From a virus (taxonomy: Duplodnaviria; Caudoviricetes), in IMG/VR virus record IMGVR_UViG_3300037067_002514, positions 1-64,000 of that record: a stretch of DNA of 64,000 bases. The stretch is one strand, 5' to 3'. The position numbers and the translations under genes are program-made. Position 1 is the first letter of the stretch; every line of letters begins with the position of its first letter. Shown here in pieces: positions 41,119-64,000 of the stretch. The notes below the pieces were generated by a model that did no database searches, was not told the DNA's origin, and worked only from the letters and a program-made list of their open reading frames with translations.

Positions 41119-42684
41119 CTACTCCTTACTACCCTCTTTAGCTACTATTCTTAACCTATCAACATTAGGTATGCCCTTTTTGGTTATTCTTTGAGGGTAT
41201 AGTATTCTATCATCTACGTGTATTTCTTTTATTATATCTAGTTGTTCCTCTGTCAAGTCATCGTTTGATATTGTTATTATACAGTCACCAGCTAATGTGC
41301 TTCCAGCAATTCCATGTTCTAAAATATCACCAGATAACCATCTTACATGAGATTTTATAGTTACTGTAGAATTACTAGAAGGAAGGTAATAAAGACCACT
41401 ACAGTTATTAACTCCAAACAAATTTGCAGTATATGTATGACTTCCTTCTACCTCAATGTTATATACCTTTAATGTCCTACTTGTACTACTAACTGCCTTA
41501 ACAACCATCATATAGTATCCATTGTATATACCAGAACCCCGTGAATATGTACTGTTAATCCTATACCCTACATGGTAAGACTTTAAATGATGTATACCCT
41601 TAGCATCTGTTCTGCTCTCACTAGAAAATATATATGGTTTATAACCACATCTTACTAATAGATCAAAAAGTTGGTATGATAATATTTTTGATACTGTAGT
41701 AAATGTATATTCATTTCCATCTTTATGACCATCACCATCTACTAGAGCCTTTACTAGAACATCATTAAAGTCAGTATTAATAAATTCTTTAGGTATAATC
41801 TTATTTTCTGCTAAATTCCCACATTTTTTTAATAATAGGCATAATTTACTTGAGTGTACCTCTAAACATATACTGTTCTCTGTTCTACTAGTTAGTCTTG
41901 AATTTGCGTTAAATAACTCTTTACATATCTTAGATATTCTATCTGCTACATCCTTTTCATCCTTGTTTAAAGCAAACTGTACTGTTCTTGGATATTCATC
42001 ATTACTAACACAACCCTCAGCAATAAACCACCCAATAAGATAAACTAAATCTTCTGTTATGGCATAAGAATATTCTTTTTCGTGGTATTTATATGGGTTA
42101 CTAAAGCATATTTCACTATATTTTTTTACATCACATATAGGGTATAACAGGGTATCTCCAACTTCTATGTCTATTGCTGCTTTATCAACTATTTTAAACC
42201 TACCATCTTTAGGTTGTCTTGAGTAATAACACCCCCTTCTTGGGGTACAGGTTGGTAAACACTGTATATTTCTGCAACTATGGGGGTATTTATACTTCTC
42301 TAGGACTTTAAAAGTATGATTACCCGTACACTCTACACCCTCTATATTTTTGTAGGTCTCTATAGATACCATAATACCAGTATAATCTCTACTAAATGTA
42401 TTAATAACTTTATACTTATTACCAGAACTAGAGTAAACAGTGTCACCAAGGATTATATCTTGTATATTTTTAAACCCTTCAGTAGTATTTACTAGTGTAT
42501 CTTCCTTGAAACAGACTTCGCAGAAACTATCTAGACTTGTTTGATTAACTTCATCAAATAAACCACCAGAAGAGCATACTGGACATACATTACCAGAACC
42601 TACTAGGATAAAGTCTACATTTCTTCCTATAGCCTCTCTTATCTCTTCCTTTATAGTTTTTGTTTCTGGAAATGTTATTGACAT
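41119..42684 (-). CDS. Putative head-closure/stopper-type neck protein with CxxC...CxxC motif, intein-containing (151 aa spliced)
   Basis: Extein IREAIGRNVDFI...CPVC...FCEV|CSGLYY...HVRW...GDCIITI...IHVDDR. The position downstream of the adaptor fits a stopper protein. Confidence 0.6.
   Translation of the reverse strand: MSITFPETKTIKEEIREAIGRNVDFILVGSGNVCPVCSSGGLFDEVNQTSLDSFCEVCFKEDTLVNTTEGFKNIQDIILGDTVYSSSGNKYKVINTFSRDYTGIMVSIETYKNIEGVECTGNHTFKVLEKYKYPHSCRNIQCLPTCTPRRGCYYSRQPKDGRFKIVDKAAIDIEVGDTLLYPICDVKKYSEICFSNPYKYHEKEYSYAITEDLVYLIGWFIAEGCVSNDEYPRTVQFALNKDEKDVADRISKICKELFNANSRLTSRTENSICLEVHSSKLCLLLKKCGNLAENKIIPKEFINTDFNDVLVKALVDGDGHKDGNEYTFTTVSKILSYQLFDLLVRCGYKPYIFSSESRTDAKGIHHLKSYHVGYRINSTYSRGSGIYNGYYMMVVKAVSSTSRTLKVYNIEVEGSHTYTANLFGVNNCSGLYYLPSSNSTVTIKSHVRWLSGDILEHGIAGSTLAGDCIITISNDDLTEEQLDIIKEIHVDDRILYPQRITKKGIPNVDRLRIVAKEGSKE
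41404..42513 (-). mobile_element. Intein 5 (370 aa) with LAGLIDADG endonuclease, in the putative neck protein
   Basis: CFKEDTLVNT...CTGNHTF...GWFIAEG...ALVDGDG...VYNIEVEGSHTYTANLFGVNN, +1 Cys. Confidence 0.92.
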
Positions 42685-47090: not shown

Positions 47091-47111
47091 AGGGGGGTAT
47101 AATACCCCCCT
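47091..47111 (-). terminator. Probable terminator after the major capsid gene
   Basis: AGGGGGGTAT-T-ATACCCCCCT hairpin 5 nt after the stop, followed by TATTT. Confidence 0.65.
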
Positions 47112-47116
47112 AAAAA

Positions 47117-48043
47117 CTAGGTATGATCTAATCTAATTATTACAGCATTTTCTAGGGCATCCAGTATCATACCATGCTGTACATATGTCCTTATGTACCA
47201 GGTAGGAGGTGCTGTAGACATTTCAGTCCACTGATCTTCTTTAGGCTCACCGTAGGTAATAAACTCACCAAGTTTGTCACCAACTACAACTACTAGATCA
47301 TCCCTGATCAGTTCATTCCTATCGTAAGGATTATCGTAGATTTGAGGTAAAGCCATAAAGGTAGTACCGTAGTAAGTACCTACCCAACCAGTTCTTTGAA
47401 TCTCTTCTAGAACTGAGTTTACTGCTACCATAGGTGCTGTAGATTCAGTAGAACCAACTGCTTGTCTATATCCAGCGAACTTAGTTACAGGTGCTAGGGC
47501 AGTCCTTCTTCCTACTACTGCTTTAACACCACCAGCTTCGTCATTGATCTTATCAATAGCTGATTCTAGTACTGTTCTAGTAATAGGGGCAGTCATGTAA
47601 TAGAAGTTAGTGTCATCATCAATAGAGGCTAAGGTGTATAAGGCTGTCATAATTCTTGTCTGGAAGAAATCATTCAGTTTTGCTTTCATTTCAGCCCTGA
47701 TTGATTCAACTGAACCAATTTCACCTGATTCAATTTCCCACAGATTATGGGATACCTGTACGTAATGCTGATCTATGTTGTAATTTACAACATCTTTTAA
47801 GGTTATCTGACTAGACAAAGTTGTCTGACCTGGCACAAACTGTCTTACTTCAATACCCCTTCTAACCTTTTTAACTATAGCATCACCAGGTTTTAATGCC
47901 CTAGTATTAAGGAACATACCAGCAATATCCAATGTTATATGCTTTGGGTCTACATAGCTTACTATTAATTCAGCTAAGGCTTTCTTATCTGTTTTTGCAA
48001 CAGAAGACATAGCTACTTTAAGCTCTTCTCTAGAAATTGTCAT
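47117..48043 (-). CDS. Major capsid protein (HK97-fold likely)
   Basis: 308 aa from ATG 48043 (SD GGAG); follows protease, scaffold and decoration genes and precedes a terminator and the adaptor. Assigned mainly by synteny. Confidence 0.75.
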   Translation of the reverse strand: MTISREELKVAMSSVAKTDKKALAELIVSYVDPKHITLDIAGMFLNTRALKPGDAIVKKVRRGIEVRQFVPGQTTLSSQITLKDVVNYNIDQHYVQVSHNLWEIESGEIGSVESIRAEMKAKLNDFFQTRIMTALYTLASIDDDTNFYYMTAPITRTVLESAIDKINDEAGGVKAVVGRRTALAPVTKFAGYRQAVGSTESTAPMVAVNSVLEEIQRTGWVGTYYGTTFMALPQIYDNPYDRNELIRDDLVVVVGDKLGEFITYGEPKEDQWTEMSTAPPTWYIRTYVQHGMILDALENAVIIRLDHT

Positions 48044-48132
48044 TGTAATCTCCTGCTTGCCTATAATGATATAAAACCACATGCAAGCGTTTAATTTATA
48101 TTTGGGCAGGAATGGTTACCTGCCCATATCTT

Positions 48133-51032: not shown

Positions 51033-51515
51033 TTACACTATAATTGACCCATAGGCTTGTCTATTATCCTTTTTTGCTTCAGATAAGGAAGCTACTGGGA
51101 TATACTCTATTTTCCTCTCTACTATAACTGGATTACTAAACAAGATTTCACCACTGTCTGATATAGTATAATCTAGCTTGCATAGAAAACTTGTATTGTT
51201 AAGATACACTTCTGCTACAATGTACGTATCAAATGTGTCCATAATCCATACCCTCTGTGTTGGTACTGGTTGATTATCAAGGTTGTCAGGAAAAAGTCTA
51301 TTTAACGCTTTCTGTATTTTATTTTCTGTTTCTCTTAGACTTTCTTCACTAAACTCTGTAACCCCAGCACTAGATTCCTTCTTACTCTTTTCATACTGAA
51401 CCTTACAAATAGCAATAGCACTACTCTTATTCTTACCAGTTTTCATTACAGAATCTACACAACTCTCCATGAATTTTATTGTGTTCTCGTTCTCATTTTT
51501 TATACCATATGGCAT
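51033..51515 (-). CDS. Hypothetical head-morphogenesis-associated protein
   Basis: FMESC...SAIAIC N-terminus and a D.F..YIV...LDYTI..GEI.FS.P..VERK..Y C-terminus, seen near phage proteases (recollection, not a search). Confidence 0.55.
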   Translation of the reverse strand: MPYGIKNENENTIKFMESCVDSVMKTGKNKSSAIAICKVQYEKSKKESSAGVTEFSEESLRETENKIQKALNRLFPDNLDNQPVPTQRVWIMDTFDTYIVAEVYLNNTSFLCKLDYTISDSGEILFSNPVIVERKIEYIPVASLSEAKKDNRQAYGSIIV

Positions 51516-51525
51516 TTTAAACCCC

Positions 51526-51996
51526 CTATAGTTTATTACCTAATAATTTTGCAATAACATGACACACTTTAAGGTGCATATCCTCTGCGTATTCATACAT
51601 TCCAACTTTAGTAGGAGTTAGCATAGACACATCACACATATCCATTAACTTACCCCCATCAAATCCAACTATGGATATTGTGTATCCTATAGAACTAGCA
51701 TAATTTACTGCATTGATAAGATTGGTAGAATTTCCACTAGCTGATATAACAATTAGTACATCACCCTCTTCAAATAGTACTTTCAGTTGATCTGAGAAGA
51801 TATAATCATATCCACGATCATTCCCTATCCTAGTTATATTTGATGTACTATCACAGAGGGATATTGCCTTATACCCCCTGCTCATTAAATCATTAGCTAG
51901 GTGGGAAGCCGTTGAAGCACTACCACCATTACCTGCTATATATATGAACCTATCCTTTTTTAATAGCTTAACAGCATCATATACAGTTCCTAGCAA
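51526..51996 (-). CDS. gmhA: Phosphoheptose isomerase-like SIS protein
   Basis: GNGGSASTASH, GND.GYD.IFS.QL, GDVLIVISASGNS.N, GFDGG, ED.H. Confidence 0.88.
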   Translation of the reverse strand: MLGTVYDAVKLLKKDRFIYIAGNGGSASTASHLANDLMSRGYKAISLCDSTSNITRIGNDRGYDYIFSDQLKVLFEEGDVLIVISASGNSTNLINAVNYASSIGYTISIVGFDGGKLMDMCDVSMLTPTKVGMYEYAEDMHLKVCHVIAKLLGNKL

Positions 51997-52952
51997 CTAA
52001 ATACCTCCTTTATTCTTGGGATATTTCTGTATATATTTCCCTCATAGTACAAGATTATCCCTTTATAGTACGCATCTGCTATACTTCTTATACCATCCTC
52101 AACAGTATACCTACACTCAAACCCCAATACTTTTTTTATCTTATCAGCATTAACATGATAAGACCTTAAATCATCTGATTCAACCTTGTTAATAATTATG
52201 TCATTTCCAATAACACCTCTTACTAGTTGTGCTAACTCATCTATAGTATAGTTACTATAAAGGACATTAAAAGCCTCTGAATCAACTAAGTTCCTAGGTG
52301 CTGTAAGCATCATCTTATATACCCTAACCATATCAAGCACATTAAGAGTAGGTCTCATCTGTGAACCCCCAAATACAGTCATTTTACCCGTTGTTAGGGC
52401 ACTTATAGTAAGAGCATTAACAGCTAAATCTAACCTTAACCTTGGGGAATAACCACATAAAGTTGATGGTCTAACAAATACATATTCTGTATTATTTAAT
52501 TCTGCCCTAATATACTCTTCATTCATTATTTTATGAAGACCATAAGTATCTACTGGGTCAGCTTTCTCTTCCTCTGTTACACTAACGGTTAATGGTTTAA
52601 TTCCATATTGACTTGTTGAACTTGCCACTATTAATCTCTTAATACTGTTTATATTACAAGCTTTAACAATATTGTAAGTAGATGAATAATCTATTGACTT
52701 AGCTAAGTCAATATCTATATCACCTGGGGCACCAGTAGAAGCAAGATGTATAATAGCATCGCAACCTTCACTGTACTTAACAACTTTATCAGTATCCCTA
52801 ATATCACCAATTATTTGGGTTAACCTATGATTATAAGGAAGTATATGCCTATATATGTACATGTCATATGTAATTACATCATGCTCTTTAAGTAGCTCAG
52901 GTACTAGTATACTCCCAACATACCCTGCTCCCCCAGTAACAAATACCCTCAT
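51990..52952 (-). CDS. NAD-dependent epimerase/dehydratase (extended SDR)
   Basis: TGGAGYVG, HLA, SSTSQYG, YGLHK (YxxxK), RLDLAVN, RP.LNV.D. Confidence 0.9.
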   Translation of the reverse strand: MRVFVTGGAGYVGSILVPELLKEHDVITYDMYIYRHILPYNHRLTQIIGDIRDTDKVVKYSEGCDAIIHLASTGAPGDIDIDLAKSIDYSSTYNIVKACNINSIKRLIVASSTSQYGIKPLTVSVTEEEKADPVDTYGLHKIMNEEYIRAELNNTEYVFVRPSTLCGYSPRLRLDLAVNALTISALTTGKMTVFGGSQMRPTLNVLDMVRVYKMMLTAPRNLVDSEAFNVLYSNYTIDELAQLVRGVIGNDIIINKVESDDLRSYHVNADKIKKVLGFECRYTVEDGIRSIADAYYKGIILYYEGNIYRNIPRIKEVFSC

Positions 52953-53920
52953 TAAATATCACCCACCTTAACTAATACTTTACCACAAAATCCACTTCTA
53001 AATGAATCTATTGCCTTATTTATACTATTAAACTCAAATAATTTAAGCTTAATTTTAGATACATCTATTATTCTAAATAAGTTATAAATATCATAGTCAG
53101 ACTGTATACCACCACCCCAAGAACCTATTATTCTCTTACCTTTTATAAAATCAAATGGTTTAACATTAAAAGAATCCGATGGTGGTGGATTACCTACTAG
53201 GATGAGAGTACCATTATCTACTAATGAGTTAAATGCTTGCTCTATTGACTTTACACTCCCTGTAGTATCTATAGCACAGTCTACTTTATCATATATATCT
53301 GTACTATCTGCCCCCAAGGTAATACCATATTTTTCCCTATCTTTATTAGTATCAGTAACATAAGTTTTAAATCCCCGATACTTTGCACCTAGGACACAGG
53401 CAGAGCCTATATTTCCCACACCATGTATCCTTATTGTTAAACCTGACGCATAGTTAAATACTGTTCCAGCACCTGTTGGTATCATACACCCAAATAGGGG
53501 TAGACTATAAAGCATTTTTTTTGGCATCTTACTTTTACCAAAGAACTTAACTAGTCTATTCTCTGGAACTATAGTATACTCTTGAAAGGTAGTTACTGCA
53601 CCTGCATTATATCCCTTATATACTGGTGCATCGGCATTTAATCCATCTACCTTAATCCAAGTAATTACAACTAAATCATTATCTTTTACCTTTGATACAT
53701 CCTCCCCTACCCCAATAACCTCACCAACTGCCTCATGACCAAGTAGGTGAGGTATATACTCTGAAAATTTATTACCAGATATCTCGTTTATTTGAGAACC
53801 ACAAATACCTGTACATAGTACTTTTACGAGTACTTGACCTCTTTTCAATTCTGGAAGTTCAATAGAAACTATCTCTAATGGCTTATTTATCTCTGTTAAT
53901 ACGGCAGCTTTAGTGTACAT
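52952..53920 (-). CDS. Zn-binding alcohol dehydrogenase (MDR)
   Basis: GQVLVKV..TGICGSQ, LLGHEAVG, GCMIPTGAG, GVGNIG. Confidence 0.9.
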   Translation of the reverse strand: MYTKAAVLTEINKPLEIVSIELPELKRGQVLVKVLCTGICGSQINEISGNKFSEYIPHLLGHEAVGEVIGVGEDVSKVKDNDLVVITWIKVDGLNADAPVYKGYNAGAVTTFQEYTIVPENRLVKFFGKSKMPKKMLYSLPLFGCMIPTGAGTVFNYASGLTIRIHGVGNIGSACVLGAKYRGFKTYVTDTNKDREKYGITLGADSTDIYDKVDCAIDTTGSVKSIEQAFNSLVDNGTLILVGNPPPSDSFNVKPFDFIKGKRIIGSWGGGIQSDYDIYNLFRIIDVSKIKLKLFEFNSINKAIDSFRSGFCGKVLVKVGDI

Positions 53921-53926
53921 TATATT

Positions 53927-54571
53927 TTAGGGAATAAACCAATAAAAATCCCCTGTATAACCCTCCTCTTTAAATAATTGTTTCCACTCTTCTACACTAT
54001 GAATAGTTTCAGCAGTTATGTTCCACTCTAGCATCCTTTTCTTCTCTTCTTCATTACTGTATGCATCTACAGTAATAAATGTCTTTTTTCCTATCCTCTG
54101 TATTTCCCTTACTGCCCTCCTGCATTCATCTTCTTTTAAGTTATGAATAGTGTTAATACATATTACTAGGTCAAATGATTTATCCGAATATGGTATATTA
54201 TTAACATTTGCCTGTATTGCAACTATTCCCTCTGGACAACAATTAACTGCATACTCTGAAATATCCATACCATATAGTTTAAGGTTATTATTATGCTGTT
54301 TAAAATCATATAGCATATAACCTTTAGCCATACCACAATCAAGTATTTTATCCCCATCACCTAGATTATAGTATTCTATAAATCTTTTAGTAACAGGAAT
54401 CCATCTTCCATCATAAATATATCCTCCATAGCAAATACGAGGTACTTTCATGTCAAAGTATCTCCAATCATATAGTCTTGCTATAGCTCTCTGTTCCTCA
54501 CTCTTCTCTTGTGCCCTAGTACTCGTATCCCTCTTTATCTTAGGATAATCTACTAGTAAATCTACTTCCAT
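53927..54571 (-). CDS. Class I SAM-dependent methyltransferase
   Basis: ILDCGMAKG, GMDISEYA, PYSDKSFDLVICINTIHNL. Confidence 0.9.
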   Translation of the reverse strand: MEVDLLVDYPKIKRDTSTRAQEKSEEQRAIARLYDWRYFDMKVPRICYGGYIYDGRWIPVTKRFIEYYNLGDGDKILDCGMAKGYMLYDFKQHNNNLKLYGMDISEYAVNCCPEGIVAIQANVNNIPYSDKSFDLVICINTIHNLKEDECRRAVREIQRIGKKTFITVDAYSNEEEKKRMLEWNITAETIHSVEEWKQLFKEEGYTGDFYWFIP

Positions 54572-54572
54572 T

Positions 54573-55382
54573 CTAACCTTCCTTTTTCATTTTATAACAA
54601 TACTCTGCTGTAGGAAATACACCACTTCTTACCTCACTAGCATATTCCATAAAAGCCTTCTTTATTTGTTCAGATATGTTTACATATCTCTTTGCAAACT
54701 TAGGTTTGAATCCTTCAAAGGTACCTAATAGATCACTAGATAGTAATAATTGACCATCAACATATTGACCAGCACCAATACCATATACTGGAATACTTAA
54801 TCTTTCTGTTATTATCTTTCCAGTTTCTGCTGGAACCCCCTCTACTAATAATATTGAAGCCCCTGCCCTCTCTACTGCCTTAGCATCATCAACAAGAATC
54901 TCTGCTGACTCTTGAGTATTCCCTTGTACTTTAAATCCACCCATCTGGGATGAACTTTGAGGTGTAAGACCAATATGACCTATAACTACCATACCAGAAT
55001 CCACTATACCCTCTATTTGAGGTGCTACTCTTTTACCCCCTTCTAGTTTAATAGCATCAACCCCCAATCTATAGAATTTACCAGCATTCTCTATTGCTGA
55101 TTCTACAGATTTTTGATATGACATAAAAGGCATATCCCCTACTACAAAGGTGTTAGGGGCAGCCCTTCTTACTGCTTCTGTATGATACAACATTTGTTCC
55201 ATAGTTACAGGCATTGTACTTGGGTACCCATATATTATCATACCTACTGAATCACCTACTAGAATCATATCTAATCCTGCTTGTTCTGCTAGGCTGGCTG
55301 TAGAATAATCATAAGCTACTACCCATGTAACCTTTTCCTTAACTTCCTTCATTTTTACTAGGTCTAGTATACTTTTCTTCAT
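54573..55382 (-). CDS. panB: Ketopantoate hydroxymethyltransferase (PanB family)
   Basis: AYD, ILVGDS.GM, GDMPF, KLEGG, GHIGLTPQ, GGFKVQG, GIGAG, DGQ. Confidence 0.95.
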   Translation of the reverse strand: MKKSILDLVKMKEVKEKVTWVVAYDYSTASLAEQAGLDMILVGDSVGMIIYGYPSTMPVTMEQMLYHTEAVRRAAPNTFVVGDMPFMSYQKSVESAIENAGKFYRLGVDAIKLEGGKRVAPQIEGIVDSGMVVIGHIGLTPQSSSQMGGFKVQGNTQESAEILVDDAKAVERAGASILLVEGVPAETGKIITERLSIPVYGIGAGQYVDGQLLLSSDLLGTFEGFKPKFAKRYVNISEQIKKAFMEYASEVRSGVFPTAEYCYKMKKEG

Positions 55383-57395
55383 TTATAGCCCCCCTTTATT
55401 AAATACTTCCCAATTTTCAATTAACCACTTATCAGTCTCTAGTATTCCCTCTTCTAGGCTAACTGTAGAATTCCAACCTAATTCACTATTGGCTAAACTA
55501 GAATCCATATTGTAGTCTAAGTCCTTACCTCTTCTATCTGGTGAATTAGTTACTAAATTATTAAAATTATATCCAGTTAAGTAACAAGTAAATTCAACTA
55601 ATTCCTTTACACTAAGGTATTCAGAACCAGAGAAGTGATATACTTTGTCATGCTTACCAGTATTAACCAAGTCTATAATTCCTTTTGCCACATCTTTACG
55701 ATGAACAAAAGATCTCCTAGTTTCACCATTACCATCTAATCTAAGTATACCACAATTATGTATTGTTGTCAAAGTTTTTGGGACTATTCTGAATAGTTGT
55801 TGGCATGAACCATATATATTAGCAAATCTGGATAGGACATAGGGGAATCTATATTGTTTGTACATAACTTCTAAGTACATATCAAATGCTGCTTTAGAGT
55901 TGTGACTAATAATATCTTGTTCTATAATATAATTATGATTATCCGCAACTTCTATGTCAATTACATCACCACAATAATTACTTAATAAAGGTTTATCTAT
56001 TGGTTGCCAAACTATATTACCTTCATTTGTTCTTTGAGATTTAATGATAGGACATGGTTTATTATAAAGCTTCAAACTTGGTATAGTATCAAAAAATAAT
56101 CCTACAGATTTAGAGTCTGTTATTATTACCTTATCACCATTTATATATGAATAAATACCCAAACGAGATAGTAAATACTTTATCTGTCTAATTAATACAG
56201 GAGAATGAGACCCAAATTCTAGTTTATTATTACAATAGCAACCATCTGCATCAAAATATCCCCCTAAAAATTCCTTAATATTATCTATAGAATTATTAAT
56301 AATTTCTTGTGGTAGTACTTTATTAACCGCTTTCTTATCTAATCCTAGACTCTGTATTTGTCTAACTAAAGAAATATCCCCTTTGTAAGCATACCAACAA
56401 TTTTTACTTTTGTGTTTTAATAAATACCCACCACCTATTAAATTTATATAATATTCAACAAAATCTTTTTTTTCGTCTGCTAATGTTATGGTTTGTTGTC
56501 TAGTAGTAGTTATGTTTTTACTTCCCTTTTTAATATAACCATCACCTACAAAATAACCTAAAAATCTGTTAAAACTAGCATTGAAATAATTAGTAATATC
56601 TCCATAATTTTCTCTGGTTGTAGCTACCCAATCTCCCTTCTGCAACTCCTTAGCAGTAACCCAAGTGGTGTTCAATGCCCCAATATCTTGGCGATAATCT
56701 AATTTATTGTTGTATCTTTTAGGTCTTTTGACTAAAAATTTATGGTTGGGGGTACACCTTATTTTTCTATTTCTTATGTTGACTTCTAATAATTCTTTAC
56801 AATTATACTTAAAAACATTGGTTACATTTTTTGATTCTACCTTATTAGTAAGAGTATTTATACTTTGAACTAAGTCTCCAATAACAATATCTTTTATTGC
56901 TTTTTCTGTTCCATTTGACAGTAAAACTAAAGTATCTGGATGTAGACATGCAGCATAAGGAGTAGTAGGGTTATATATTTTTGACTCTTTGAACAGTTTA
57001 GGTTTGTTTCCATAAACTTCTGGAGTTGATGAGTGAATAAACTTCTGTAAATAAGTTTGAGTATTGAGATATTGTACTATTCTAACTAATGCTGAACAAT
57101 TAACATCAAAGTAATCACTAGGATAATCCCAACTATCATCAACTATACCTAATGCTATAAAGTTTAGAACAATAGTGGGTCTTATTCTATCTATAAGGTC
57201 TTTAATAGCCTCAAAATCTTCCACTATGTCATAGTGGTACTCTTTGAAGTTATCTAACTTAGGGTTAGCACTATAGGGTTTAAACATATTATGATTTACT
57301 GTTCTCCCTATACCTACAACTTGATATCCTTCGGTTAAAAGGGCATCAACAGCTATACCACCCATATAAGAGCTACTACCTAATACTAATATCAT
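55383..57395 (-). CDS. NDP-sugar 4,6-dehydratase-like extended SDR, intein-containing (320 aa spliced)
   Basis: STPEVYG, TPYAA|SK (YxxxK), RFANIYG, RIVPK, DGNG...RSFVH..D, DRRGKD..Y. Confidence 0.88.
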   Translation of the reverse strand: MILVLGSSSYMGGIAVDALLTEGYQVVGIGRTVNHNMFKPYSANPKLDNFKEYHYDIVEDFEAIKDLIDRIRPTIVLNFIALGIVDDSWDYPSDYFDVNCSALVRIVQYLNTQTYLQKFIHSSTPEVYGNKPKLFKESKIYNPTTPYAACLHPDTLVLLSNGTEKAIKDIVIGDLVQSINTLTNKVESKNVTNVFKYNCKELLEVNIRNRKIRCTPNHKFLVKRPKRYNNKLDYRQDIGALNTTWVTAKELQKGDWVATTRENYGDITNYFNASFNRFLGYFVGDGYIKKGSKNITTTRQQTITLADEKKDFVEYYINLIGGGYLLKHKSKNCWYAYKGDISLVRQIQSLGLDKKAVNKVLPQEIINNSIDNIKEFLGGYFDADGCYCNNKLEFGSHSPVLIRQIKYLLSRLGIYSYINGDKVIITDSKSVGLFFDTIPSLKLYNKPCPIIKSQRTNEGNIVWQPIDKPLLSNYCGDVIDIEVADNHNYIIEQDIISHNSKAAFDMYLEVMYKQYRFPYVLSRFANIYGSCQQLFRIVPKTLTTIHNCGILRLDGNGETRRSFVHRKDVAKGIIDLVNTGKHDKVYHFSGSEYLSVKELVEFTCYLTGYNFNNLVTNSPDRRGKDLDYNMDSSLANSELGWNSTVSLEEGILETDKWLIENWEVFNKGGL
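55899..56948 (-). mobile_element. Intein 7 (350 aa) with LAGLIDADG endonuclease, inside the YxxxK motif
   Basis: CLHPDTLV...CTPNHKF...GYFVGDG...GYFDADG...DIEV..NHNY...SHN, +1 Ser. Confidence 0.95.
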
Positions 57396-57396
57396 T

Positions 57397-58776
57397 TTAC
57401 CTCTTTAGTAGTGTCTTAGAGTATTCTAATAAATCCTTCTTAGACACACTCCTCTTATTTCCAGAATAGGATACCTTTATAGCACCAGCTACACAACCTA
57501 TAAAACCTACAAGTTCAATGGGGGCATCTACACACATTAATGGGGACGTTATAGAAAAGAAAGCATCTCCAGCACCAACTGTATCAATAACATTACTAGT
57601 CAAAGATGGAATAGTATTATTATAAGCTATACATCCCCTTTCTCCAGTAGTTATTATTGAAGTTTTTGGTAACTCATTTTGTATAATAATTGATAAGTTA
57701 TCATCTCTCTCATACTTCTCATGCACTGCTAATCTTAATTCATCCTCATCTATACAAATGTATATATTATCTTTCCTATCCCAATATTTTCTAATAGTAT
57801 TATGCCCCATATTACCAGCATTTCTTTGTGTTGCTACTGCTAAATATTTAGCCTTATTCTTTATTAAGTCCCTAACATTCCTAGTTAATAATCCATGTCC
57901 AAAATCTGCTACTATTACTAGGTCATAGTCTCTAATGCACTTATCTAATGAGTTATGTATAAAAGGCTGGTGTTCACTATATTCATAGGTCTCAAATAAT
58001 TTTTGATTACCTTCAATATACCTCTTTTTTGTAATAGTACTGGAATCTACTATATTAACGGTATTAACAAAGGAAGATAGGTGATTTCGTATTGCCCATG
58101 AACCCCCTAGATATTCCTCTTTGTTACCCAATTCAAAGGCAACTATTGGTGATTTACCCGACTTACCTATTGAATGCCCATATTGGTATATATCTAAAAT
58201 ACTTTCACTAACTACTAGTACTTTTAATTCCTCTATTCTCTTTATCCAATCATAAATATCAATATAAGAATATGGAAACTTATTTAAGTACTCTACTGTG
58301 TTTTCAGGAAGGCTCATACTATTTATAATCTTAGAAGAACTAAATACTTCACCACCAGTAAATACTATTTTACCCCCAACTGAATGTATTGCCTCTTCTT
58401 CCTTTGTTATTGCATCATTATCTAGACCTTTATACTCTATACCCTTAACGTATATGTTTGGTTTAACTAATCTTATTGTTTCAACAGCAGTCTCATATTC
58501 ATTTACAGCTACATAATCAACTATAGATAGATTTGATAGTAATCTTGCTCTTATACTATCTGTAAACATAGGTCTATTAAAGCCTTTATTAACAAACTTA
58601 TCCTGAGTAACAGTTACTACTAGAATATCCCCTTTTGATTTTGCCTCCTCAAAGTGTTTTAAATGCCCCATATGTAGTATATCAAATACACCATGACATA
58701 ATACTACAGTCATTCCTTTACTCTTTAATTCTTCTACTTTATCAGAGAGTTCACTTAAACTCAATACCTCACTCAT
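57397..58776 (-). CDS. Bifunctional nucleotidyltransferase / PfkB-type sugar kinase (HldE-like, reversed domain order)
   Basis: N-terminal HGVFDILHMGH and YVKG.EY; C-terminal DTVGAGDAFF, DFGHG and GKSGKSP. Confidence 0.9.
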   Translation of the reverse strand: MSEVLSLSELSDKVEELKSKGMTVVLCHGVFDILHMGHLKHFEEAKSKGDILVVTVTQDKFVNKGFNRPMFTDSIRARLLSNLSIVDYVAVNEYETAVETIRLVKPNIYVKGIEYKGLDNDAITKEEEAIHSVGGKIVFTGGEVFSSSKIINSMSLPENTVEYLNKFPYSYIDIYDWIKRIEELKVLVVSESILDIYQYGHSIGKSGKSPIVAFELGNKEEYLGGSWAIRNHLSSFVNTVNIVDSSTITKKRYIEGNQKLFETYEYSEHQPFIHNSLDKCIRDYDLVIVADFGHGLLTRNVRDLIKNKAKYLAVATQRNAGNMGHNTIRKYWDRKDNIYICIDEDELRLAVHEKYERDDNLSIIIQNELPKTSIITTGERGCIAYNNTIPSLTSNVIDTVGAGDAFFSITSPLMCVDAPIELVGFIGCVAGAIKVSYSGNKRSVSKKDLLEYSKTLLKR

Positions 58777-60431
58777 GCTAGTTTTTCTCCAAACTTTACT
58801 ACTTGTGATATCCTATGGGTATCTGGTATTATAACATTACAAAATACTGGGTCATTTCCCTTTAATACTCTTTTAATGGTATCTTTTATATCCTTATTGA
58901 GTATAACTTCTTCTGTTCTTATCCCATAAGCCTTAGATACCTCAGTAAAATTAGGAAAACCAATATCATTATAAGCTGAGGCTGTATACCTAGAACCTAA
59001 CCAATCATCTTGAGTCTGTTTCATCATTGAGTACCCATTATTATTAATATTAAATACCTTAATAGGAATATTTAGTAACCTTATTGTGGATAGCTCTTGA
59101 ATGTTCATTTGTAAAGCACCATCCCCCATTGTAGCTATAATCTTTTTCCCACTAGCGTAATGTGCCCCTATAGCTGCTGGTAAACACCAACCCATTGATG
59201 TATTATTAAAATCTGAGTAAATCCTTTGCTTTTTAAACATGAATGATTGCATTAACCATACTAAAGAACTTCCAGTATCACCAAGTATTAAATCATCATC
59301 ATTAACAAACTTAGATAGGTTATAGAAGAATATACTAGGGTCAATGGTGTATGTATAACCATATATATTAGCATAAGCTTGTTTCCAAGAATTAATAGTA
59401 CAATGCCACTCTAGTATATTATTTAGTTTAAACTTATATGCATTTAGCCCAATAGTAAATAATTTCAAATCACAGGATATACCTATAGTTGGATTACTTT
59501 TATCAGCCTCACATGAGTCTATATCCACTATAATCTTTTTAGCCTTTGGTGCAAAATCAGAAGGTCTACTCCCTATCATATGACTATCTAGCCTACTACC
59601 TAGCACAAGTAATAAATCAGCATTTTGTACTGTAAGATTTCCTACTTTTGAGCCATGTTGCCCAAAATATCCAGCATTTAAAGGATGATTGTAAGGTAGT
59701 AATCCTGTAGCCCCCCAAGTCTGTAATACAGGTATTTGTAGTTTATCTACTAAGGTAAGTACCTCTTTCTCTGCTTTAGATAAAAATACCCCACTACCTA
59801 GAATTAAAGCTGGTCTCTTAGCCCTAGTTAACTCATAAATAACATTGTTAATATTGGGGATAGAAAGATCAAGGTATACTTCTGGTACATAGCACTCTAA
59901 TTTTGAAACATCTACATCCATTCTTTGTATATCATCTGGTATATCCACTAGTACAGAACCTTTTCTTCCTTCTTGTGCAATATATACTGCTTTTTGAAGT
60001 TCATATTTGATCTTATAAGGGTCTATAACAGTAACTGCATACTTAGTTACTGGTTTAAAAATACTAACAACATCAGTCTCTTGAAAACCAAGTTGTCTAA
60101 CTCCACTAGTACCCTTCATCCTTGAAGTAGTAACTTGCCCAGTTATTGCTAGTAAGGGAATAGAGTCATAATATGCCCCTGCTACCCCAGTTAGCAAGTT
60201 AGTAGCACCTGCCCCACTTGTAGCTATACATACCCCTATATTACCAGATACTCTAGAATAACCATCGGCAGCCATAGCAGAAGCCTGTTCATGATTATTA
60301 CAAACATAACTTAATTTTTTACTCTTTGATATAGAGTCTACTAGGTGTAATACTGCCCCACCATTAACTAGGAACACTTTAGTTACTCCTAAGTTCTCTA
60401 TAAATTTAACAACAAAGTCAGATACTTTCAT
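58773..60431 (-). CDS. ThDP-dependent enzyme (acetolactate-synthase-like fold), copy 1
   Basis: HEQASAMAADGY.R, TSGAGATN, GQV, FQETD, GDGALQMNIQEL...NNNGY. Confidence 0.92.
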   Translation of the reverse strand: MKVSDFVVKFIENLGVTKVFLVNGGAVLHLVDSISKSKKLSYVCNNHEQASAMAADGYSRVSGNIGVCIATSGAGATNLLTGVAGAYYDSIPLLAITGQVTTSRMKGTSGVRQLGFQETDVVSIFKPVTKYAVTVIDPYKIKYELQKAVYIAQEGRKGSVLVDIPDDIQRMDVDVSKLECYVPEVYLDLSIPNINNVIYELTRAKRPALILGSGVFLSKAEKEVLTLVDKLQIPVLQTWGATGLLPYNHPLNAGYFGQHGSKVGNLTVQNADLLLVLGSRLDSHMIGSRPSDFAPKAKKIIVDIDSCEADKSNPTIGISCDLKLFTIGLNAYKFKLNNILEWHCTINSWKQAYANIYGYTYTIDPSIFFYNLSKFVNDDDLILGDTGSSLVWLMQSFMFKKQRIYSDFNNTSMGWCLPAAIGAHYASGKKIIATMGDGALQMNIQELSTIRLLNIPIKVFNINNNGYSMMKQTQDDWLGSRYTASAYNDIGFPNFTEVSKAYGIRTEEVILNKDIKDTIKRVLKGNDPVFCNVIIPDTHRISQVVKFGEKLA

Positions 60432-61295
60432 TTACCAACCTTTCCTTTTATTAGGGTATGATCTACACCTACATTTACAAGTATTACACTCTTGGGTATT
60501 TAATAAGGATAAACCCTCATCTATCAGGTAATCTATACTATTGAAATCATTGTTATTTATACAGTCTATAACCTTTACATAATTACTCTTTAGAATGTAC
60601 CCCCACCATACAGTTATAAAATGTTCAACGTTATACCCCATTAGCTTAAAAAACTGGTCATAATCCTCTCTTAAATACCTTGAAAAGTGATCTCCCCCTA
60701 ATAAAGGTGTATCAGTATTACATTTATGTGATATAGGGCGAACATTAGCCCACACACTCCACATGTGATTTAGCATAGTTTCATATGACATTAGAAGTTC
60801 TAGATTGTAGTATGTATCACCCCCATACTTTTCTACTGTATCCTTATAAGCCTTATATAAAAATGAATTACAGGGGGATAGTCTTGAAAAGTACCCACTA
60901 TTGTAAATATCCATTCCAAAACCAAATTTCTGAGCACTATTATTTGTGATTATGTTTCCCCAAGGTATTGATATACCCCAAATCCTAGACTTATCTACAC
61001 TATCCCAAGATTTAACAAGGTAATCATACCACTCTCTGTAGAATACAACATCACTATGAGCATAAGCTATTATGTCATACTCTCTAGTAAATGCTTTAAA
61101 CCCCTTATATATCAGGGTATCAGTAGGACTAATATTGTCAATCTTTACAAAGTTTATCCTATCACTGATGTTGCACTCTTTATTGTGGGATACTACATAA
61201 ATATCTTGATCATAACTACTATCTAGAAGTGTCCTGATACACTCTTTATATGTTTCAGTAGGTGCAACTACAGGTATTATTAAAGCAGTATTCAT
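60432..61295 (-). CDS. GT-A-like glycosyltransferase
   Basis: LIIPV N-terminus and YDIIAYAHSDVVF (DxD-like) region; divergent. Confidence 0.55.
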   Translation of the reverse strand: MNTALIIPVVAPTETYKECIRTLLDSSYDQDIYVVSHNKECNISDRINFVKIDNISPTDTLIYKGFKAFTREYDIIAYAHSDVVFYREWYDYLVKSWDSVDKSRIWGISIPWGNIITNNSAQKFGFGMDIYNSGYFSRLSPCNSFLYKAYKDTVEKYGGDTYYNLELLMSYETMLNHMWSVWANVRPISHKCNTDTPLLGGDHFSRYLREDYDQFFKLMGYNVEHFITVWWGYILKSNYVKVIDCINNNDFNSIDYLIDEGLSLLNTQECNTCKCRCRSYPNKRKGW

Positions 61296-61972
61296 TATTT
61301 AACACCTACCCCAACTGCAAATAGATAGTGAGCCATATTTGAATAACCAGTATGGACAACTTCATCATTCATTGAAAACATAAGTACATTCTCATAGAAT
61401 CTACTCATCAGATTCTTAAGTGATTTATAATCCTTTAGGTTTATATGCTGAACCTCACTTACTTTAGAGGCATACATACTAGCTGACAAGTTAGGTGTAC
61501 CCATTACATATATACCATTATACTTCAAACTATTTGCTATATTATACATAAATTTATCTTCTTTAGACTTATCAAGATGTTCAATAACGTCTATAGAATA
61601 AGCACCATCAAACTTTGTGTAACCAGTATCAACGTATAAAGATGAGGTACTCATATCATGTACTTTGAACTCAATATTACCTATTGCTTTAAGCCTTTCT
61701 TTATTACTCTCTATTAGCCTTCTTTCAGGGTCTATTGCAAGTATATACTTAGCTTCTTTAGCTACTATAGGTACCCCAAAACCATCCCCTGCACCTACTT
61801 CTAGGATATCCCTCTTTCCTTCCAACATCCTAGATACAAACTTATATCTAGATAGTACAAAGCACATATGCTTAGGGTCATTTAACAGGCTATAGGAAGT
61901 CCATGAGCCTAGTTTTATCCCCTCTACAAATTGATCTTTGGTACCCTCTTTATATGCTTCTTCCTGATTCAT
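61295..61972 (-). CDS. Class I SAM-dependent methyltransferase
   Basis: ILEVGAGDGFG, AIDP, SIDVIEHL, GTPN. Confidence 0.9.
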   Translation of the reverse strand: MNQEEAYKEGTKDQFVEGIKLGSWTSYSLLNDPKHMCFVLSRYKFVSRMLEGKRDILEVGAGDGFGVPIVAKEAKYILAIDPERRLIESNKERLKAIGNIEFKVHDMSTSSLYVDTGYTKFDGAYSIDVIEHLDKSKEDKFMYNIANSLKYNGIYVMGTPNLSASMYASKVSEVQHINLKDYKSLKNLMSRFYENVLMFSMNDEVVHTGYSNMAHYLFAVGVGVK

Positions 61973-63714
61973 TATTCTCCTACCATAAGTCTTTTTAACT
62001 CTTCCCTGTCAAGATATGGACACATATCCTCTAAAGGTCTATGAGAAAAGGTACCATTACCATTATCTATGAAACCCATTGATGGTGTAACCTTTTGTTC
62101 TGGTGATACCATTATCTCACAAATACAAGGGTTATTATCTGACATCATTTCTCTTATAGCGTCTATTGACTCAGCATCATTATTAACTCGTATTACTCTA
62201 ATTCCATACGCTTTACCAACTTTTCTATAGTCTGGAAGAGATAACCTCCCTTCAACAGAAGAACCTATATATCTCTTATCTAAGAAAGATTCTTGGGTAT
62301 GCCTTATAGCTAAATAACCTTCATTATTAAACACCACTATTTTAATAGGTAAACAATGCTCTACTATAGTTTGTAATTCTTGTATGTTGAATTGAAAACT
62401 ACCATCACCAACCATGCAGACTATTCTATACCCATTTGAAGCAAAGCAAGCCCCTATACTTTCAGGTAATCCAGTACCCATTGGTGCTTGGGAAGCTGAA
62501 ACAATAAGTCTACTACCTTGTCTTAGGTTAATAGCTTGATTAGATATGTACAAGGCAGTACCACCACCATCAACAGCATATGAAGATTTATACTTTGATA
62601 ACTCTTCTATAAAATTGTAAGGATTAACCCAAGTATAATCAATAGTGTTACTACTTACCTTATTATATCCTTTATAGGTATTACATTGGGAACGCCAAAC
62701 TGAATTATCCTTACTAGGTAGAGATATACAATTAAGAAAATAGTTAGCATCACTAAGAACTTTAAGATCAACCTTTAGATAGTTGTAGTTTAATTCCACT
62801 TGATCAATATCAACTACTACTTTTTTAGCTTTAGGTGCAAATCCCTCTATATTTGTAGATGTTATATTAACCCCTAGATGAGAGCCTATTGATATTAATA
62901 AGTCACAATTCTGTATAGCTAAATTAGCTCCCCTGTTACCAGCTATACCAATTAATCCGATATTTAGGGGATGATAATCATATACTAAATCATGAGAATT
63001 CCAAGAGTACACAAAGGGTATCTTATTATCCTCTATAAAATTCCTAAAACTATCGGCAGCACCAGAAAGTCTTATTCCAGCACCAGCTAGAATTAAAGGT
63101 CTCTTTGCTTCACTATATAACTTGCTTAAAGCATCTGACGGAATGGTATACATTTTTAAAGATGGCTTAACATATTGTTCTAGTGAATCTACATTTATAT
63201 CCATCATTTGAAAGTCTAATGGGATATCTACCCAAACAGGACTTTTCCTACCATTAGTAGCTAGATAAAGTGCTTTGTCTAGGTAATACTTTATCTTTTT
63301 AGGATTATCAACTGTCACTGCATACTTAGTAATTTTACTTACTAGGGAAGTGATATCAAATTCCTGACTACCTAGTTGTCTAATGCCCTTACCTTGGGAA
63401 GTGAAGGAATATCTGGATTGTCCAGATATTACTAGAAGTGGAATTGAATCAGTCCATGCGGATAATACCCCTGTTAGTGCATTTGTACCACCTGGGCCAG
63501 TTGTGACAATACAAACCCCAATATTGTTATTTATCCTTGCATATCCACCAGCAGCTAAAGATGCGGCTTGTTCATGGTGCATAAATACTGGCTTTATATC
63601 AACCTTACTAATTGAATCAAATATATGTACTGCACCACCACCAGTAACACCAAATACAGTGTTAACTTTACATTCTTCTTTTATATACTTAGCAACAAAA
63701 TCAGTTAGTTTCAT
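61972..63714 (-). CDS. ThDP-dependent enzyme (acetolactate-synthase-like fold), copy 2
   Basis: HHEQAASLAAGGY.R, TTGPGGTN, SGQ, GDGSFQFNIQEL...NNEGY. Confidence 0.92.
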   Translation of the reverse strand: MKLTDFVAKYIKEECKVNTVFGVTGGGAVHIFDSISKVDIKPVFMHHEQAASLAAGGYARINNNIGVCIVTTGPGGTNALTGVLSAWTDSIPLLVISGQSRYSFTSQGKGIRQLGSQEFDITSLVSKITKYAVTVDNPKKIKYYLDKALYLATNGRKSPVWVDIPLDFQMMDINVDSLEQYVKPSLKMYTIPSDALSKLYSEAKRPLILAGAGIRLSGAADSFRNFIEDNKIPFVYSWNSHDLVYDYHPLNIGLIGIAGNRGANLAIQNCDLLISIGSHLGVNITSTNIEGFAPKAKKVVVDIDQVELNYNYLKVDLKVLSDANYFLNCISLPSKDNSVWRSQCNTYKGYNKVSSNTIDYTWVNPYNFIEELSKYKSSYAVDGGGTALYISNQAINLRQGSRLIVSASQAPMGTGLPESIGACFASNGYRIVCMVGDGSFQFNIQELQTIVEHCLPIKIVVFNNEGYLAIRHTQESFLDKRYIGSSVEGRLSLPDYRKVGKAYGIRVIRVNNDAESIDAIREMMSDNNPCICEIMVSPEQKVTPSMGFIDNGNGTFSHRPLEDMCPYLDREELKRLMVGE

Positions 63715-64000
63715 CCCTCACCTTCCAGTTATTAAAACTTCTCCTTAATTTATACATATCTGGTTCTTCTAGTAGCTTATCCCTAAGTAATCCATATCCC
63801 CAACAGTCATTCACTACAGAAAAATTCCTTCCACCAGATACTGTTTTCCCTTCTTTACAAAGCCAAGTAATACATTTATATATATTATCAAAGCTAGTTC
63901 CAGTACCTTTTTCTAAGAACTTTTGGGTCTCTATATGCTTTTCTGAATTTACTGGTGTATTTTCTAATATAAGGTTATGAGTTTTAGTCTTAGTCCATCC
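63701..64000 (-). CDS. C-terminus of a probable SDR oxidoreductase (5' part outside the window; not in the ORF track)
   Basis: Open frame GWTKTKTH...VSGGRNFSVVNDCWG...DMYKLRR...ETN-stop, overlapping the next ATG; resembles classical SDR C-termini. Confidence 0.55.
   Translation of the reverse strand, partial: GWTKTKTHNLILENTPVNSEKHIETQKFLEKGTGTSFDNIYKCITWLCKEGKTVSGGRNFSVVNDCWGYGLLRDKLLEEPDMYKLRRSFNNWKVRDETN

Follow-up and report, generated by a model that had tools for sequence, protein, structure and literature searches.

What would a tailed phage make with 13 sugar genes placed between its portal and capsid genes? This question is raised by the IMG/VR virus record IMGVR_UViG_3300037067_002514 (Caudoviricetes, 34% GC), a 90,043-base sequence with a CheckV completeness of 56%, whose bases 1–64000 form the window analyzed here (64,000 nt in full). 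A sequence-only reading of this window had proposed that genes at 51526–64000 enable the phage to build its own exotic activated sugar. Our analysis suggests that the locus is probably a phage operon for a nucleoside diphosphate (NDP)-activated, carbon-branched and O-methylated sugar, along with soluble glycosyltransferases for its transfer.

Gene families were assigned using Pfam and NCBIfam profile scans, and fold matches were obtained from Atlas structures (table 1). The twelve genes named in the earlier reading were all recovered where it had placed them, as judged by the profile matches and the positions of the open reading frames. With an additional glycosyltransferase gene they form one tightly packed unit of 13 genes running from position 65525 down to 51526, with gaps or overlaps of no more than 10 nt; every gene of the region lies on the minus strand. 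The order of transcription is GT2 glycosyltransferase, short-chain dehydrogenase/reductase (SDR), a first thiamine diphosphate enzyme (ThDP-1), methyltransferase, GT-A fold glycosyltransferase, a second thiamine diphosphate enzyme (ThDP-2), a fused nucleotidyltransferase and kinase (NTase-kinase), an intein-containing dehydratase, PanB, a second methyltransferase, a Zn-dependent dehydrogenase (Zn-ADH), an epimerase, and a GmhA-like isomerase. The cluster had been described as directly upstream of the head genes, which is right; more precisely, it lies inside the head module, from portal to capsid. The sequence beyond position 64000 consists of phage genes and not of host chromosome: the SDR gene ends there and is followed by the GT2 gene, an intein-bearing portal gene and a terminase-like gene.

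The suggestion that the two genes with an acetolactate synthase fold resemble YerE agrees with our findings, in that ThDP-1 is nearest to the YerE-like enzyme JanthE and both proteins lack the hallmark residues of acetohydroxyacid synthase (AHAS). Both contain the TPP_enzyme_N/M/C domains, the catalytic Glu (HEQ) and the cofactor motif GDG..NN, and the best NCBIfam name for both is acetolactate synthase. Against the AHAS model TIGR00118, ThDP-1 and ThDP-2 scored 348 and 393.5 bits, respectively, below the cut-off of 538. The Arg of the RFDDR motif and the Trp of the QW motif are acceptor-binding residues of AHAS. Alignment with Escherichia coli IlvI revealed that RFDDR is replaced by HLGVN in ThDP-1 and by RLDSH in ThDP-2, and QW by HT or QT, so that the Trp is a Thr in both proteins. 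The closest solved relative of ThDP-1 is 8rph, and the match extends from end to end, C-terminal tail included (371 bits, E 7.5e-110), compared with 248 bits for PpYerE and 208 bits (E 2.9e-60) for the best AHAS. The structure 8rph (also 8rpi/8rpj) is JanthE from Janthinobacterium sp. HH01 (PMC12188165). Long and branched alpha-keto acids can serve as donors for this enzyme, with ketones as acceptors (PMC12188165; reviewed in PMC12247030). JanthE has a CDG motif, whereas ThDP-1 has the canonical GDG. ThDP-2 scored 281.5 bits with PDB 5ahk, which we take to be PpYerE, 275.6 bits with a plant AHAS and 274.1 bits with JanthE.

A quick maximum-likelihood tree, which holds no YerE or ErwE sequence, placed the two proteins in separate clades with SH-aLRT support of 100% (ThDP-1) and 99%, and E. 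coli IlvI at the end of a very long branch (3.4 changes per site). No ACT regulatory small subunit (IlvN), IlvC or IlvD was detected in the cluster and the flanking genes scanned. Because of the scores below the AHAS cut-off, the lost hallmark residues, the separate clades, and the lack of IlvN, IlvC and IlvD, both enzymes are predicted not to be AHAS and to belong to the YerE-like sugar-branching type. Phage relatives of ThDP-2 are 57–59% identical to it (loci L036 and L172–L174), and an enzyme of the bacterial locus L038 is 49% identical. A C-terminal tail, PLEDMxPxLDRKEF, is kept by ThDP-1, JanthE and the bacterial ThDP-2-type enzymes (in L038, and the second ThDP enzyme of locus L039), and is missing from ThDP-2 and its relative in L036 (L036:4796-6469).

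Syntenic clusters, which the earlier reading had proposed to look for, are present both in cellular glycan loci and in related phage contigs. Cellular relatives of ThDP-1 (49–55% identity) sit in glycan clusters. In two of these (L005 and L006; ThDP-1 relatives 53–54% identical), an SDR gene was called next to the ThDP gene, and epimerases/dehydratases, GT2, Wzm/Wzt, a methyltransferase 45–48% identical to the 214-aa enzyme of the phage and a Zn-ADH (35–36%) were also found. The bacterial locus L038 contains an SIS isomerase, two epimerases, Zn-ADH, methyltransferase, SDR, ThDP enzyme, E1 alpha/beta, an NTase-PfkB protein and a Wzx flippase. Another bacterial locus, L085, has a core of epimerase, GmhA, NTase-kinase, E1 alpha/beta, dehydratase, methyltransferase and Zn-ADH, and a BphJ-like acetaldehyde dehydrogenase and an HMGL/DmpG/BphI-like aldolase right before the ThDP gene, which is followed by methyltransferase, SDR and GT2. 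As judged from its families, this dehydrogenase-aldolase pair is of the ErwJ/ErwI type known from erwiniose synthesis. The companions expected of a YerE-like carboligase gene, namely genes for an NDP-sugar dehydratase, for reduction of the side chain and for formation of the keto acid, were observed in the window and around the cellular ThDP genes of L005, L006, L038 and L085. A member of Planctomycetales (L039) carries one gene of the ThDP-1 type and one of the ThDP-2 type in tandem, separated by methyltransferase genes; thus, the double-ThDP layout is not peculiar to the phage. In the cellular clusters, a second ThDP system (E1 alpha/beta or split transketolase) stands beside the YerE-like gene (L085:3255-5271, L058:1767-3823, L038:11773-13837 and L006:1-1677), where the phage has a second YerE-like gene. 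It seems that two carbon-carbon bond-forming steps are the rule for this type of cluster.

The remaining genes of the operon recur in these loci as well. Homologs of the classical SDR (38–50% identity) adjoin the ThDP gene or sit one gene away in L036, L038, L039 and L085, and the SDR, which occupies the position of YerF, is a candidate side-chain ketoreductase. The 225-aa methyltransferase has homologs (48–62% identity) beside ThDP genes in L036, L039, L085, L173 and L174; those of the 214-aa methyltransferase (45–63%; L005, L006, L036, L038, L040, L058 and L085) are mostly beside Zn-ADH, which itself has homologs (35–47% identity) in the same cellular and phage clusters. The 320-aa epimerase, in which YxxxK is present and the dehydratase Glu absent, is 59% identical to a gene of L036 and 37–39% identical to genes of L006, L038 and L058. 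GmhA-like homologs were found in L036 (58%), L038, L058, L085 and L121.

Two metagenome phage contigs from ENA (L036 and L037; 45–63% identity) have the cluster after the portal gene, in the order terminase-like, portal, GT2, SDR, methyltransferase, ThDP-2, NTase-kinase, dehydratase, GT-A, methyltransferase, Zn-ADH, epimerase, GmhA, GT4. In another contig (L174), the order is portal, GT2, GT2, methyltransferase, NTase-kinase, SDR, ThDP-2, and two related phage fragments (L172 and L173) are of a similar kind. More distant IMG/VR contigs (L121 and L122; 31–45% identity) carry epimerase, dehydratase, SDR, ThDP, NTase-kinase and GmhA genes. The post-portal position is conserved in this phage group, and the core module recurs in other viral contigs. 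At least three related phage contigs thus have a post-portal cluster, and in none of these partial contigs was ThDP-1, PanB or an intein seen.

PanB (ketopantoate hydroxymethyltransferase) is a clear member of its family by score, with 313.7 bits for TIGR00222 (cut-off 207.55) and 340.9 bits for NF001452 (cut-off 272), and is 70–74% identical to cellular PanBs labelled Chloroflexi/Chloroflexota. Its GC content (37%; 22% at third codon positions) is phage-like, the nearest cellular genes have 51% GC, and 0–1 nt separates it from either neighbor, to which it is predicted to be translationally coupled. Because the composition is phage-like and the gene abuts both neighbors, PanB is not an assembly chimera. 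A PanB profile search of IMG/VR yielded 40 PanB-bearing loci (L124–L163), giant-virus bins included, and 34 of the 40 hold an acetolactate synthase/YerE-like ThDP gene, mostly 15–130 bp away. Four of the six ThDP-less loci were placed in a tree, where their PanBs group with ordinary cellular PanBs. In this tree, the phage PanB branches next to the cellular "Chloroflexi" PanBs as their sister (99% support), a position that is consistent with separate recruitment, not proof of it. A joint gain of PanB and ThDP-1 was considered and dropped in view of the tandem ThDP-1-type and ThDP-2-type genes of the bacterium L039. Single-sequence IMG/VR scans detected no relatives of PanB or ThDP-2.

Ketopantoate, the product of PanB, is a gamma-hydroxy alpha-keto acid. 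Compounds of this class are the preferred donors of ErwE (PMC9306805). Considering that the PanB-ThDP linkage recurs in 34 of the 40 viral loci, we read PanB as the enzyme that may form the donor, replacing the aldolase; on balance, we are somewhat inclined to accept this role.

PanB and the two acetolactate synthase-like genes might instead be ordinary auxiliary metabolic genes for branched-chain amino acids and pantothenate/coenzyme A, lying beside a simpler heptose cluster. PanB is bona fide by score with its nearest relatives in cellular, non-glycan contexts, NCBIfam names both ThDP proteins acetolactate synthase, and acetolactate synthase or panB is named in some papers on viruses along with auxiliary metabolic genes (a co-mention of terms only). 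On the other hand, the ThDP proteins fall under the AHAS cut-off, have lost the hallmark residues and are far from IlvI, and no IlvN, IlvC, IlvD, PanC, PanD or PanE was detected in the genes scanned. Relatives of the ThDP genes lie in glycan clusters, with no IlvC, IlvD or IlvN called near those inspected; the genes in question are interleaved and, as it appears, translationally coupled with sugar genes, and PanB has a ThDP gene nearby in most of the viral loci. The purely metabolic role that the earlier reading had raised as a doubt is therefore very improbable for a sugar operon that lacks IlvC, IlvD, IlvN and PanC.

Under the preferred sugar-branching interpretation, the acceptor sugar has to be activated, for which the GmhA-like isomerase and the NTase-kinase are the candidates. 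The former scored 108 bits with TIGR00441, under the cut-off of 209. In the latter, the nucleotidyltransferase domain precedes the PfkB kinase domain, the reverse of the order in HldE; the matches are rfaE_dom_II (E 5.8e-31, 107 bits; cut-off 181.5) and rfaE_dom_I (E 4.9e-14, 52 bits; cut-off 345). Against full-length HldE (NF008454), the protein reached 122 bits of the required 521, so that it has neither the domain order nor the equivalog score of HldE. Its active-site motifs HxGH and DTVGAGD are intact, and the nucleotidyltransferase domain also matches glycerol-3-phosphate cytidylyltransferase (E 4.7e-11). The family with reversed order is large (842 representatives at E<=1e-30), and in one member (P0424, 699 aa, Patescibacteria) an N-terminal HAD-IIIA (GmhB-type) phosphatase domain is fused to the protein. 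By its domain make-up, this fusion ties the family to the bisphosphate route with a GmhB-type step. The system would thus work like a heptose pathway, as only a putative member of the canonical one.

The dehydratase gene is interrupted by an intein. Its extein consists of residues 1–149 and 500–670, with the T-P-E motif in STPEVYG, and the spliced protein reads PYAASKAA, which places the intein inside the catalytic YxxxK (PYAA|SKAA). The match to TIGR01181 (E 2.8e-37) is under the cut-off because the intein splits the dehydratase. Cys1, the terminal His-Asn and the +1 Ser of a class 1 intein are all present, as are Hint and LAGLIDADG domains. The intein-free homolog in L036 aligns to residues 1–149 and 500–667, leaving an empty site exactly there. 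Considering that the intein lies inside YxxxK, the keto-sugar step should depend on splicing. Further inteins were found in the second GT4 (42675–45014), a neck-region protein (41119–42684), the portal, the terminase-like protein and NrdD (contig 65623–78535). Their number is unusually high and their hosts are non-classical; in L036/L037, the sites in dehydratase and portal are empty.

A possible pathway can be outlined as follows. The GmhA-like isomerase and the NTase-kinase would convert a host ketose phosphate, most likely sedoheptulose-7-phosphate, into an NDP-heptose, with the phosphatase supplied by the host. The dehydratase, active only once its intein is spliced, would yield an NDP-4-keto-6-deoxy sugar. 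The two YerE/JanthE-like enzymes would then couple acyl groups, obtained from alpha-keto acids by decarboxylation, to keto groups of the sugar, giving tertiary alcohols. PanB would supply one donor by converting host alpha-ketoisovalerate to ketopantoate, a role akin to that of the ErwI/ErwJ aldolase pair in erwiniose synthesis. The classical SDR would reduce the side-chain ketone, the epimerase, Zn-ADH and two methyltransferases would tailor the product, and GT2, GT-A and two GT4 enzymes would attach the sugar to an acceptor in the cytoplasm, for which virion proteins are the likeliest candidates. We infer the substrates and the order of steps, and likewise the acceptor; gene content, families, synteny and the PanB-ThDP linkage are observed. 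The claim that the phage builds its own exotic sugar is supported by the ThDP enzymes and synteny; independence from host pools holds only in part, as host sedoheptulose-7-phosphate, keto acids, methylene-tetrahydrofolate and S-adenosylmethionine would still be required.

Several points weigh against this scheme. As a whole it rests on homology and gene neighborhood, and with a record about 56% complete, genes for DNA modification or export may lie elsewhere. By sequence score, ThDP-2 is no nearer to PpYerE than to plant AHAS. As regards PanB, two genes separate it from the nearest ThDP gene, it was not found in the related phage contigs (which are partial) or in 80 cellular ThDP-1-like loci, and it falls outside both ThDP-adjacent viral PanB clades. 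The two cellular relatives inspected sit in non-glycan contexts. The beta-carbon of ketopantoate is quaternary, and the literature on YerE-like enzymes that we consulted reports no test of ketopantoate as a donor. The gene could have come to lie in the operon by chance, as a pantothenate gene with no link to the sugar. In the activation step, the GmhA-like protein and both HldE domains score under the curated cut-offs, and no HAD-IIIA/GmhB gene (TIGR01662) was detected in the 90-kb, about 56% complete record, so that the host would have to provide the phosphatase. Among the genes around the cellular PanB relatives are those for molybdopterin dehydrogenase, acyl-CoA dehydrogenase and corrinoid methyltransferase. 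The Chloroflexota affiliation of these relatives is a weak hint at the host lineage; GC is 34% in the phage versus ~48% in those contigs.

The heptose route suggested in the earlier reading holds in so far as GmhA and HldE are the best family matches, and is weakened by scores that are all below cut-off and by the lack of GmhB. Thus, the starting sugar could be a non-heptose, and the branched product could derive from an octulose or hexulose phosphate, or be a CDP-linked alditol made with the Zn-ADH as in CDP-ribitol synthesis. The reversed domain order and the match of the nucleotidyltransferase domain to glycerol-3-phosphate cytidylyltransferase point the same way as the low scores and the GmhB gene missing from the 90 kb, and the transketolase or E1 alpha/beta genes of the related cellular clusters could extend or branch carbon chains. 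We nevertheless regard a non-heptose sugar as rather unlikely: heptose enzymes are the best family match of all three domains, one protein of the NTase-kinase family carries a fused GmhB-type HAD-IIIA phosphatase, and Zn-ADH and methyltransferase accompany the ThDP gene in L005/L006 stretches without SIS or NTase-kinase genes. As for the alditol version, the known CDP-glucitol route of Campylobacter jejuni relies on other families, PF01128 and PF01370 (PMC10918830).

For the heptose-type branched sugar that we prefer, the acceptor is considered next. No membrane segment was predicted in any cluster protein or in the 363-aa GT4, and no flippase, polymerase, priming transferase or acyl/Gtr-type membrane protein was detected in the 90 kb scanned. 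GT2, GT-A and GT4 lie between portal and capsid, and the second GT4 at the neck, all among structural genes. Because the proteins are soluble, export genes are lacking and four transferases lie among head and neck genes, we favor virion proteins as acceptor, with a little less than even confidence. The same pathway might serve a host envelope glycan (O-antigen, S-layer or a lipid-linked wall-polymer precursor), for example in superinfection exclusion. The homologous cellular clusters are envelope-glycan loci with Wzx or Wzm/Wzt, peripheral GT2/GT4 enzymes often act on lipid-linked intermediates without membrane segments, and phages are well known to modify O-antigen, Kapi1 being one example. 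A host-glycan acceptor appears possible but doubtful, considering that priming, flippase, polymerase and Gtr-type genes were absent from the 90 kb, and that the cluster and both GT4 genes are embedded in head and neck genes, with the post-portal position kept in divergent relatives.

Another possible destination is phage DNA, glycosylated as an anti-restriction hypermodification. A GmhB-like phosphatase and a bifunctional kinase/nucleotidyltransferase have been proposed to make NDP-arabinose in RB69/DLP3 (bioRxiv 10.1101/2025.06.16.659550). The enzyme types found here are similar, the proteins are all soluble, and a large set of phage genes serves nucleotide metabolism (NrdD, NrdG, dUTPase and ThyX). 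We consider this destination quite improbable, since the 90 kb (about 56% of the genome) contain an ordinary ThyX and no homolog of a ThyA-type hydroxymethylase, the cluster lies in the head module away from replication genes, and it would be unusual for a phage to decorate DNA with a branched methylated sugar by means of four glycosyltransferases. The most specific version of the virion-protein interpretation, in which virions carry a 6-deoxy-heptose with O-methyl groups and two ThDP-installed branches, one derived from ketopantoate, and in which PanB was recruited repeatedly into viral YerE-like pathways, is speculative and we would not expect all of it to hold.

Several known systems resemble this locus. 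In the acyl-branched sugar scheme, known for yersiniose (YerE/YerF), erwiniose (ErwI/ErwJ-ErwE-ErwF), caryophyllose (MMAR_2331/2332) and gastriose (MygI/MyGE/MygF), the erwiniose pair ErwJ/ErwI produces 4-hydroxy-2-oxopentanoate, which ErwE couples to the keto sugar before the side chain is reduced by ErwF (Steitz et al. 2022, PMC9306805). The phage shares with this scheme the combination of a ThDP carboligase of acetolactate synthase fold, a reductase, a 4,6-dehydratase, an enzyme for a gamma-hydroxy alpha-keto acid, methyltransferases and glycosyltransferases. It differs in that the cluster is phage-encoded, GmhA-like and reversed HldE-like genes replace those for CDP-3,6-dideoxyhexose, two ThDP clades are present, PanB stands in for the class II pyruvate aldolase, and a Zn-ADH and two methyltransferases are added. 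The SIS isomerase, PfkB kinase, cytidylyltransferase-fold nucleotidyltransferase and SDR dehydratase/epimerase resemble the ADP- and GDP-heptose pathways and the tailoring of GDP-heptose for the C. jejuni capsule, whereas the reversed domains, low scores and lack of GmhB set the system apart from pathways of GmhA, HldE or HddA/HddC, GmhB and HldD. To our knowledge, C-branching and PanB occur in no described heptose pathway. Glycosyltransferases near structural genes and viral synthesis of nucleotide sugars recall virion glycosylation in mycobacteriophages, giant-virus glycans and RB69/DLP3. The described mycobacteriophages that we know of have transferases only and use host nucleotide sugars, and the scale here, 13 contiguous genes plus two glycosyltransferases, is far larger than described for a tailed phage.

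A literature search found no described virus pathway with ThDP branching enzymes or PanB, and no paper tying phages, PanB or heptoses to YerE-type branching. The chemistry itself would be of the known YerE-like, acyl-branched type. What appears to be new is the tailed-phage carrier, the heptose-type entry, the two ThDP clades and the donor role of PanB, as well as the extra Zn-ADH and methyltransferases, the putative intein gate on the dehydratase and the placement in the head module. If the interpretation is correct, YerE-type branching extends from bacterial lipopolysaccharides to phages and heptose-type precursors, PanB gains a second physiological role as the source of a sugar side chain, and many viral "acetolactate synthase" and "PanB" genes, now taken for amino acid and vitamin genes, become glycan genes. 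A tailed phage would be investing ~15 kb in an exotic sugar of its own, probably for its particle, which bears on stability, adsorption and host recognition. With an intein in the catalytic motif of the dehydratase, the whole pathway would hinge on protein splicing. The ThDP enzymes, as putative ketone-accepting enzymes for bulky donors, are also candidate biocatalysts for chiral tertiary alcohols.

Table 1. Genes and other features of the sugar operon and neighboring head and neck genes. Positions beyond 64000 refer to the whole contig.
Feature	Position	Strand	Match or remark
GT2 glycosyltransferase	64491-65525 (contig)	-	
Classical SDR, 271 aa	63701-64516 (contig; crosses the window edge, 63701-64000 inside)	-	adh_short, YxxxK motif
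ThDP enzyme 1 (ThDP-1), 580 aa	61972-63714	-	YerE/JanthE-like carboligase, candidate sugar C-branching enzyme
Class I S-adenosylmethionine methyltransferase, 225 aa	61295-61972	-	Pfam Methyltransf_25/11/12
GT-A fold glycosyltransferase, 287 aa	60432-61295	-	Atlas structure, TM 0.62-0.72 to GT2 families
ThDP enzyme 2 (ThDP-2), 552 aa	58773-60431	-	Putative second YerE-like carboligase, different clade
Nucleotidyltransferase (N-terminal) + PfkB kinase (C-terminal), reversed HldE order	57397-58776	-	rfaE_dom_II, rfaE_dom_I
NDP-sugar 4,6-dehydratase-like extended SDR, 320-aa extein with 350-aa intein	55383-57395	-	GDP_Man_Dehyd, Epimerase, dTDP_gluc_dehyt on both exteins
Class 1 LAGLIDADG intein in dehydratase	55899-56948	-	Intein_splicing E 2.4e-18, LAGLIDADG_3 E 1.3e-14
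PanB, ketopantoate hydroxymethyltransferase, 269 aa	54573-55382	-	TIGR00222
Class I S-adenosylmethionine methyltransferase, 214 aa	53927-54571	-	Pfam
Zn-dependent medium-chain dehydrogenase (Zn-ADH), 322 aa	52952-53920	-	ADH_N, ADH_zinc_N
Extended SDR epimerase/reductase, 320 aa	51990-52952	-	Epimerase E 1.4e-34
GmhA-like SIS sugar-phosphate isomerase, 156 aa	51526-51996	-	TIGR00441 E 4.5e-31
160-aa protein, between GmhA-like and GT4 genes	51033-51515	-	Weak Atlas prohead-protease-like leads (score <=0.84)
GT4 (GT-B) glycosyltransferase, 363 aa	49932-51023	-	Glycos_transf_1 E 6e-10; among head genes
HK97-fold major capsid protein	47117-48082	-	NF042927 E 5.9e-14
Second GT4, with intein, among neck genes	42675-45014	-	phrog_2170 E 1.3e-32, intein matches
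Portal, 842 aa, intein-bearing	65623-68151 (contig)	-	C-terminal part phrog_2739 E 1.8e-9
Terminase-like protein, 1418 aa, with inteins	Beyond portal	-	Weak terminase match

The 287-aa GT-A protein has no Pfam or NCBIfam match. Its Atlas matches include fused GT2-methyltransferase proteins, and a homolog with 40% identity is present in L036. The 225-aa methyltransferase and GT-A genes (60432–61972) overlap by 1 nt and correspond to the halves of fused GT2-methyltransferase proteins of Bacillota; their counterparts in L036 are not adjacent. One gene beyond the operon core, the 363-aa GT4 is 45% identical to the glycosyltransferase at the equivalent position of L036. The exteins of the second GT4, whose gene is not contiguous with the operon, are ~30% identical to the same L036 protein.

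The 160-aa protein encoded between the GmhA-like and GT4 genes was considered as a GmhB and rejected for want of a HAD motif. An 87-aa protein at the equivalent position of L036 matches residues 1–64 of the 160-aa protein, which is probably the product of a head gene and not a member of the pathway. Three small proteins are encoded between the GT4 and capsid genes. Farther beyond the terminase-like gene are genes for NrdD (with inteins), NrdG, dUTPase and a ClpP-like protease. Comparison with GenBank phages gave no match for the 12.5-kb block (megablast) or the capsid protein (tblastn), and for ThDP-2 (tblastn) only matches of <=33% identity, mostly to host-like ilvB; in the absence of a close match among these phages, we know of no isolated relative.

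A 97-nt gap (contig 65526–65622) separates the portal stop from the GT2 start. It contains a perfect palindrome of 9–10 bp (AGGGTAAGT...ACTTACCCT), followed by TTGCAA, 16 nt, TGgTATAAT, a G-rich ribosome-binding site and the TTG start of GT2. The first terminator-like hairpin on the minus strand is located past the capsid gene, at 47110–47093. Judging from these elements, the sugar genes seem to be transcribed from a promoter of their own, and the palindrome upstream of GT2 is perhaps an operator or the terminator of the portal gene.

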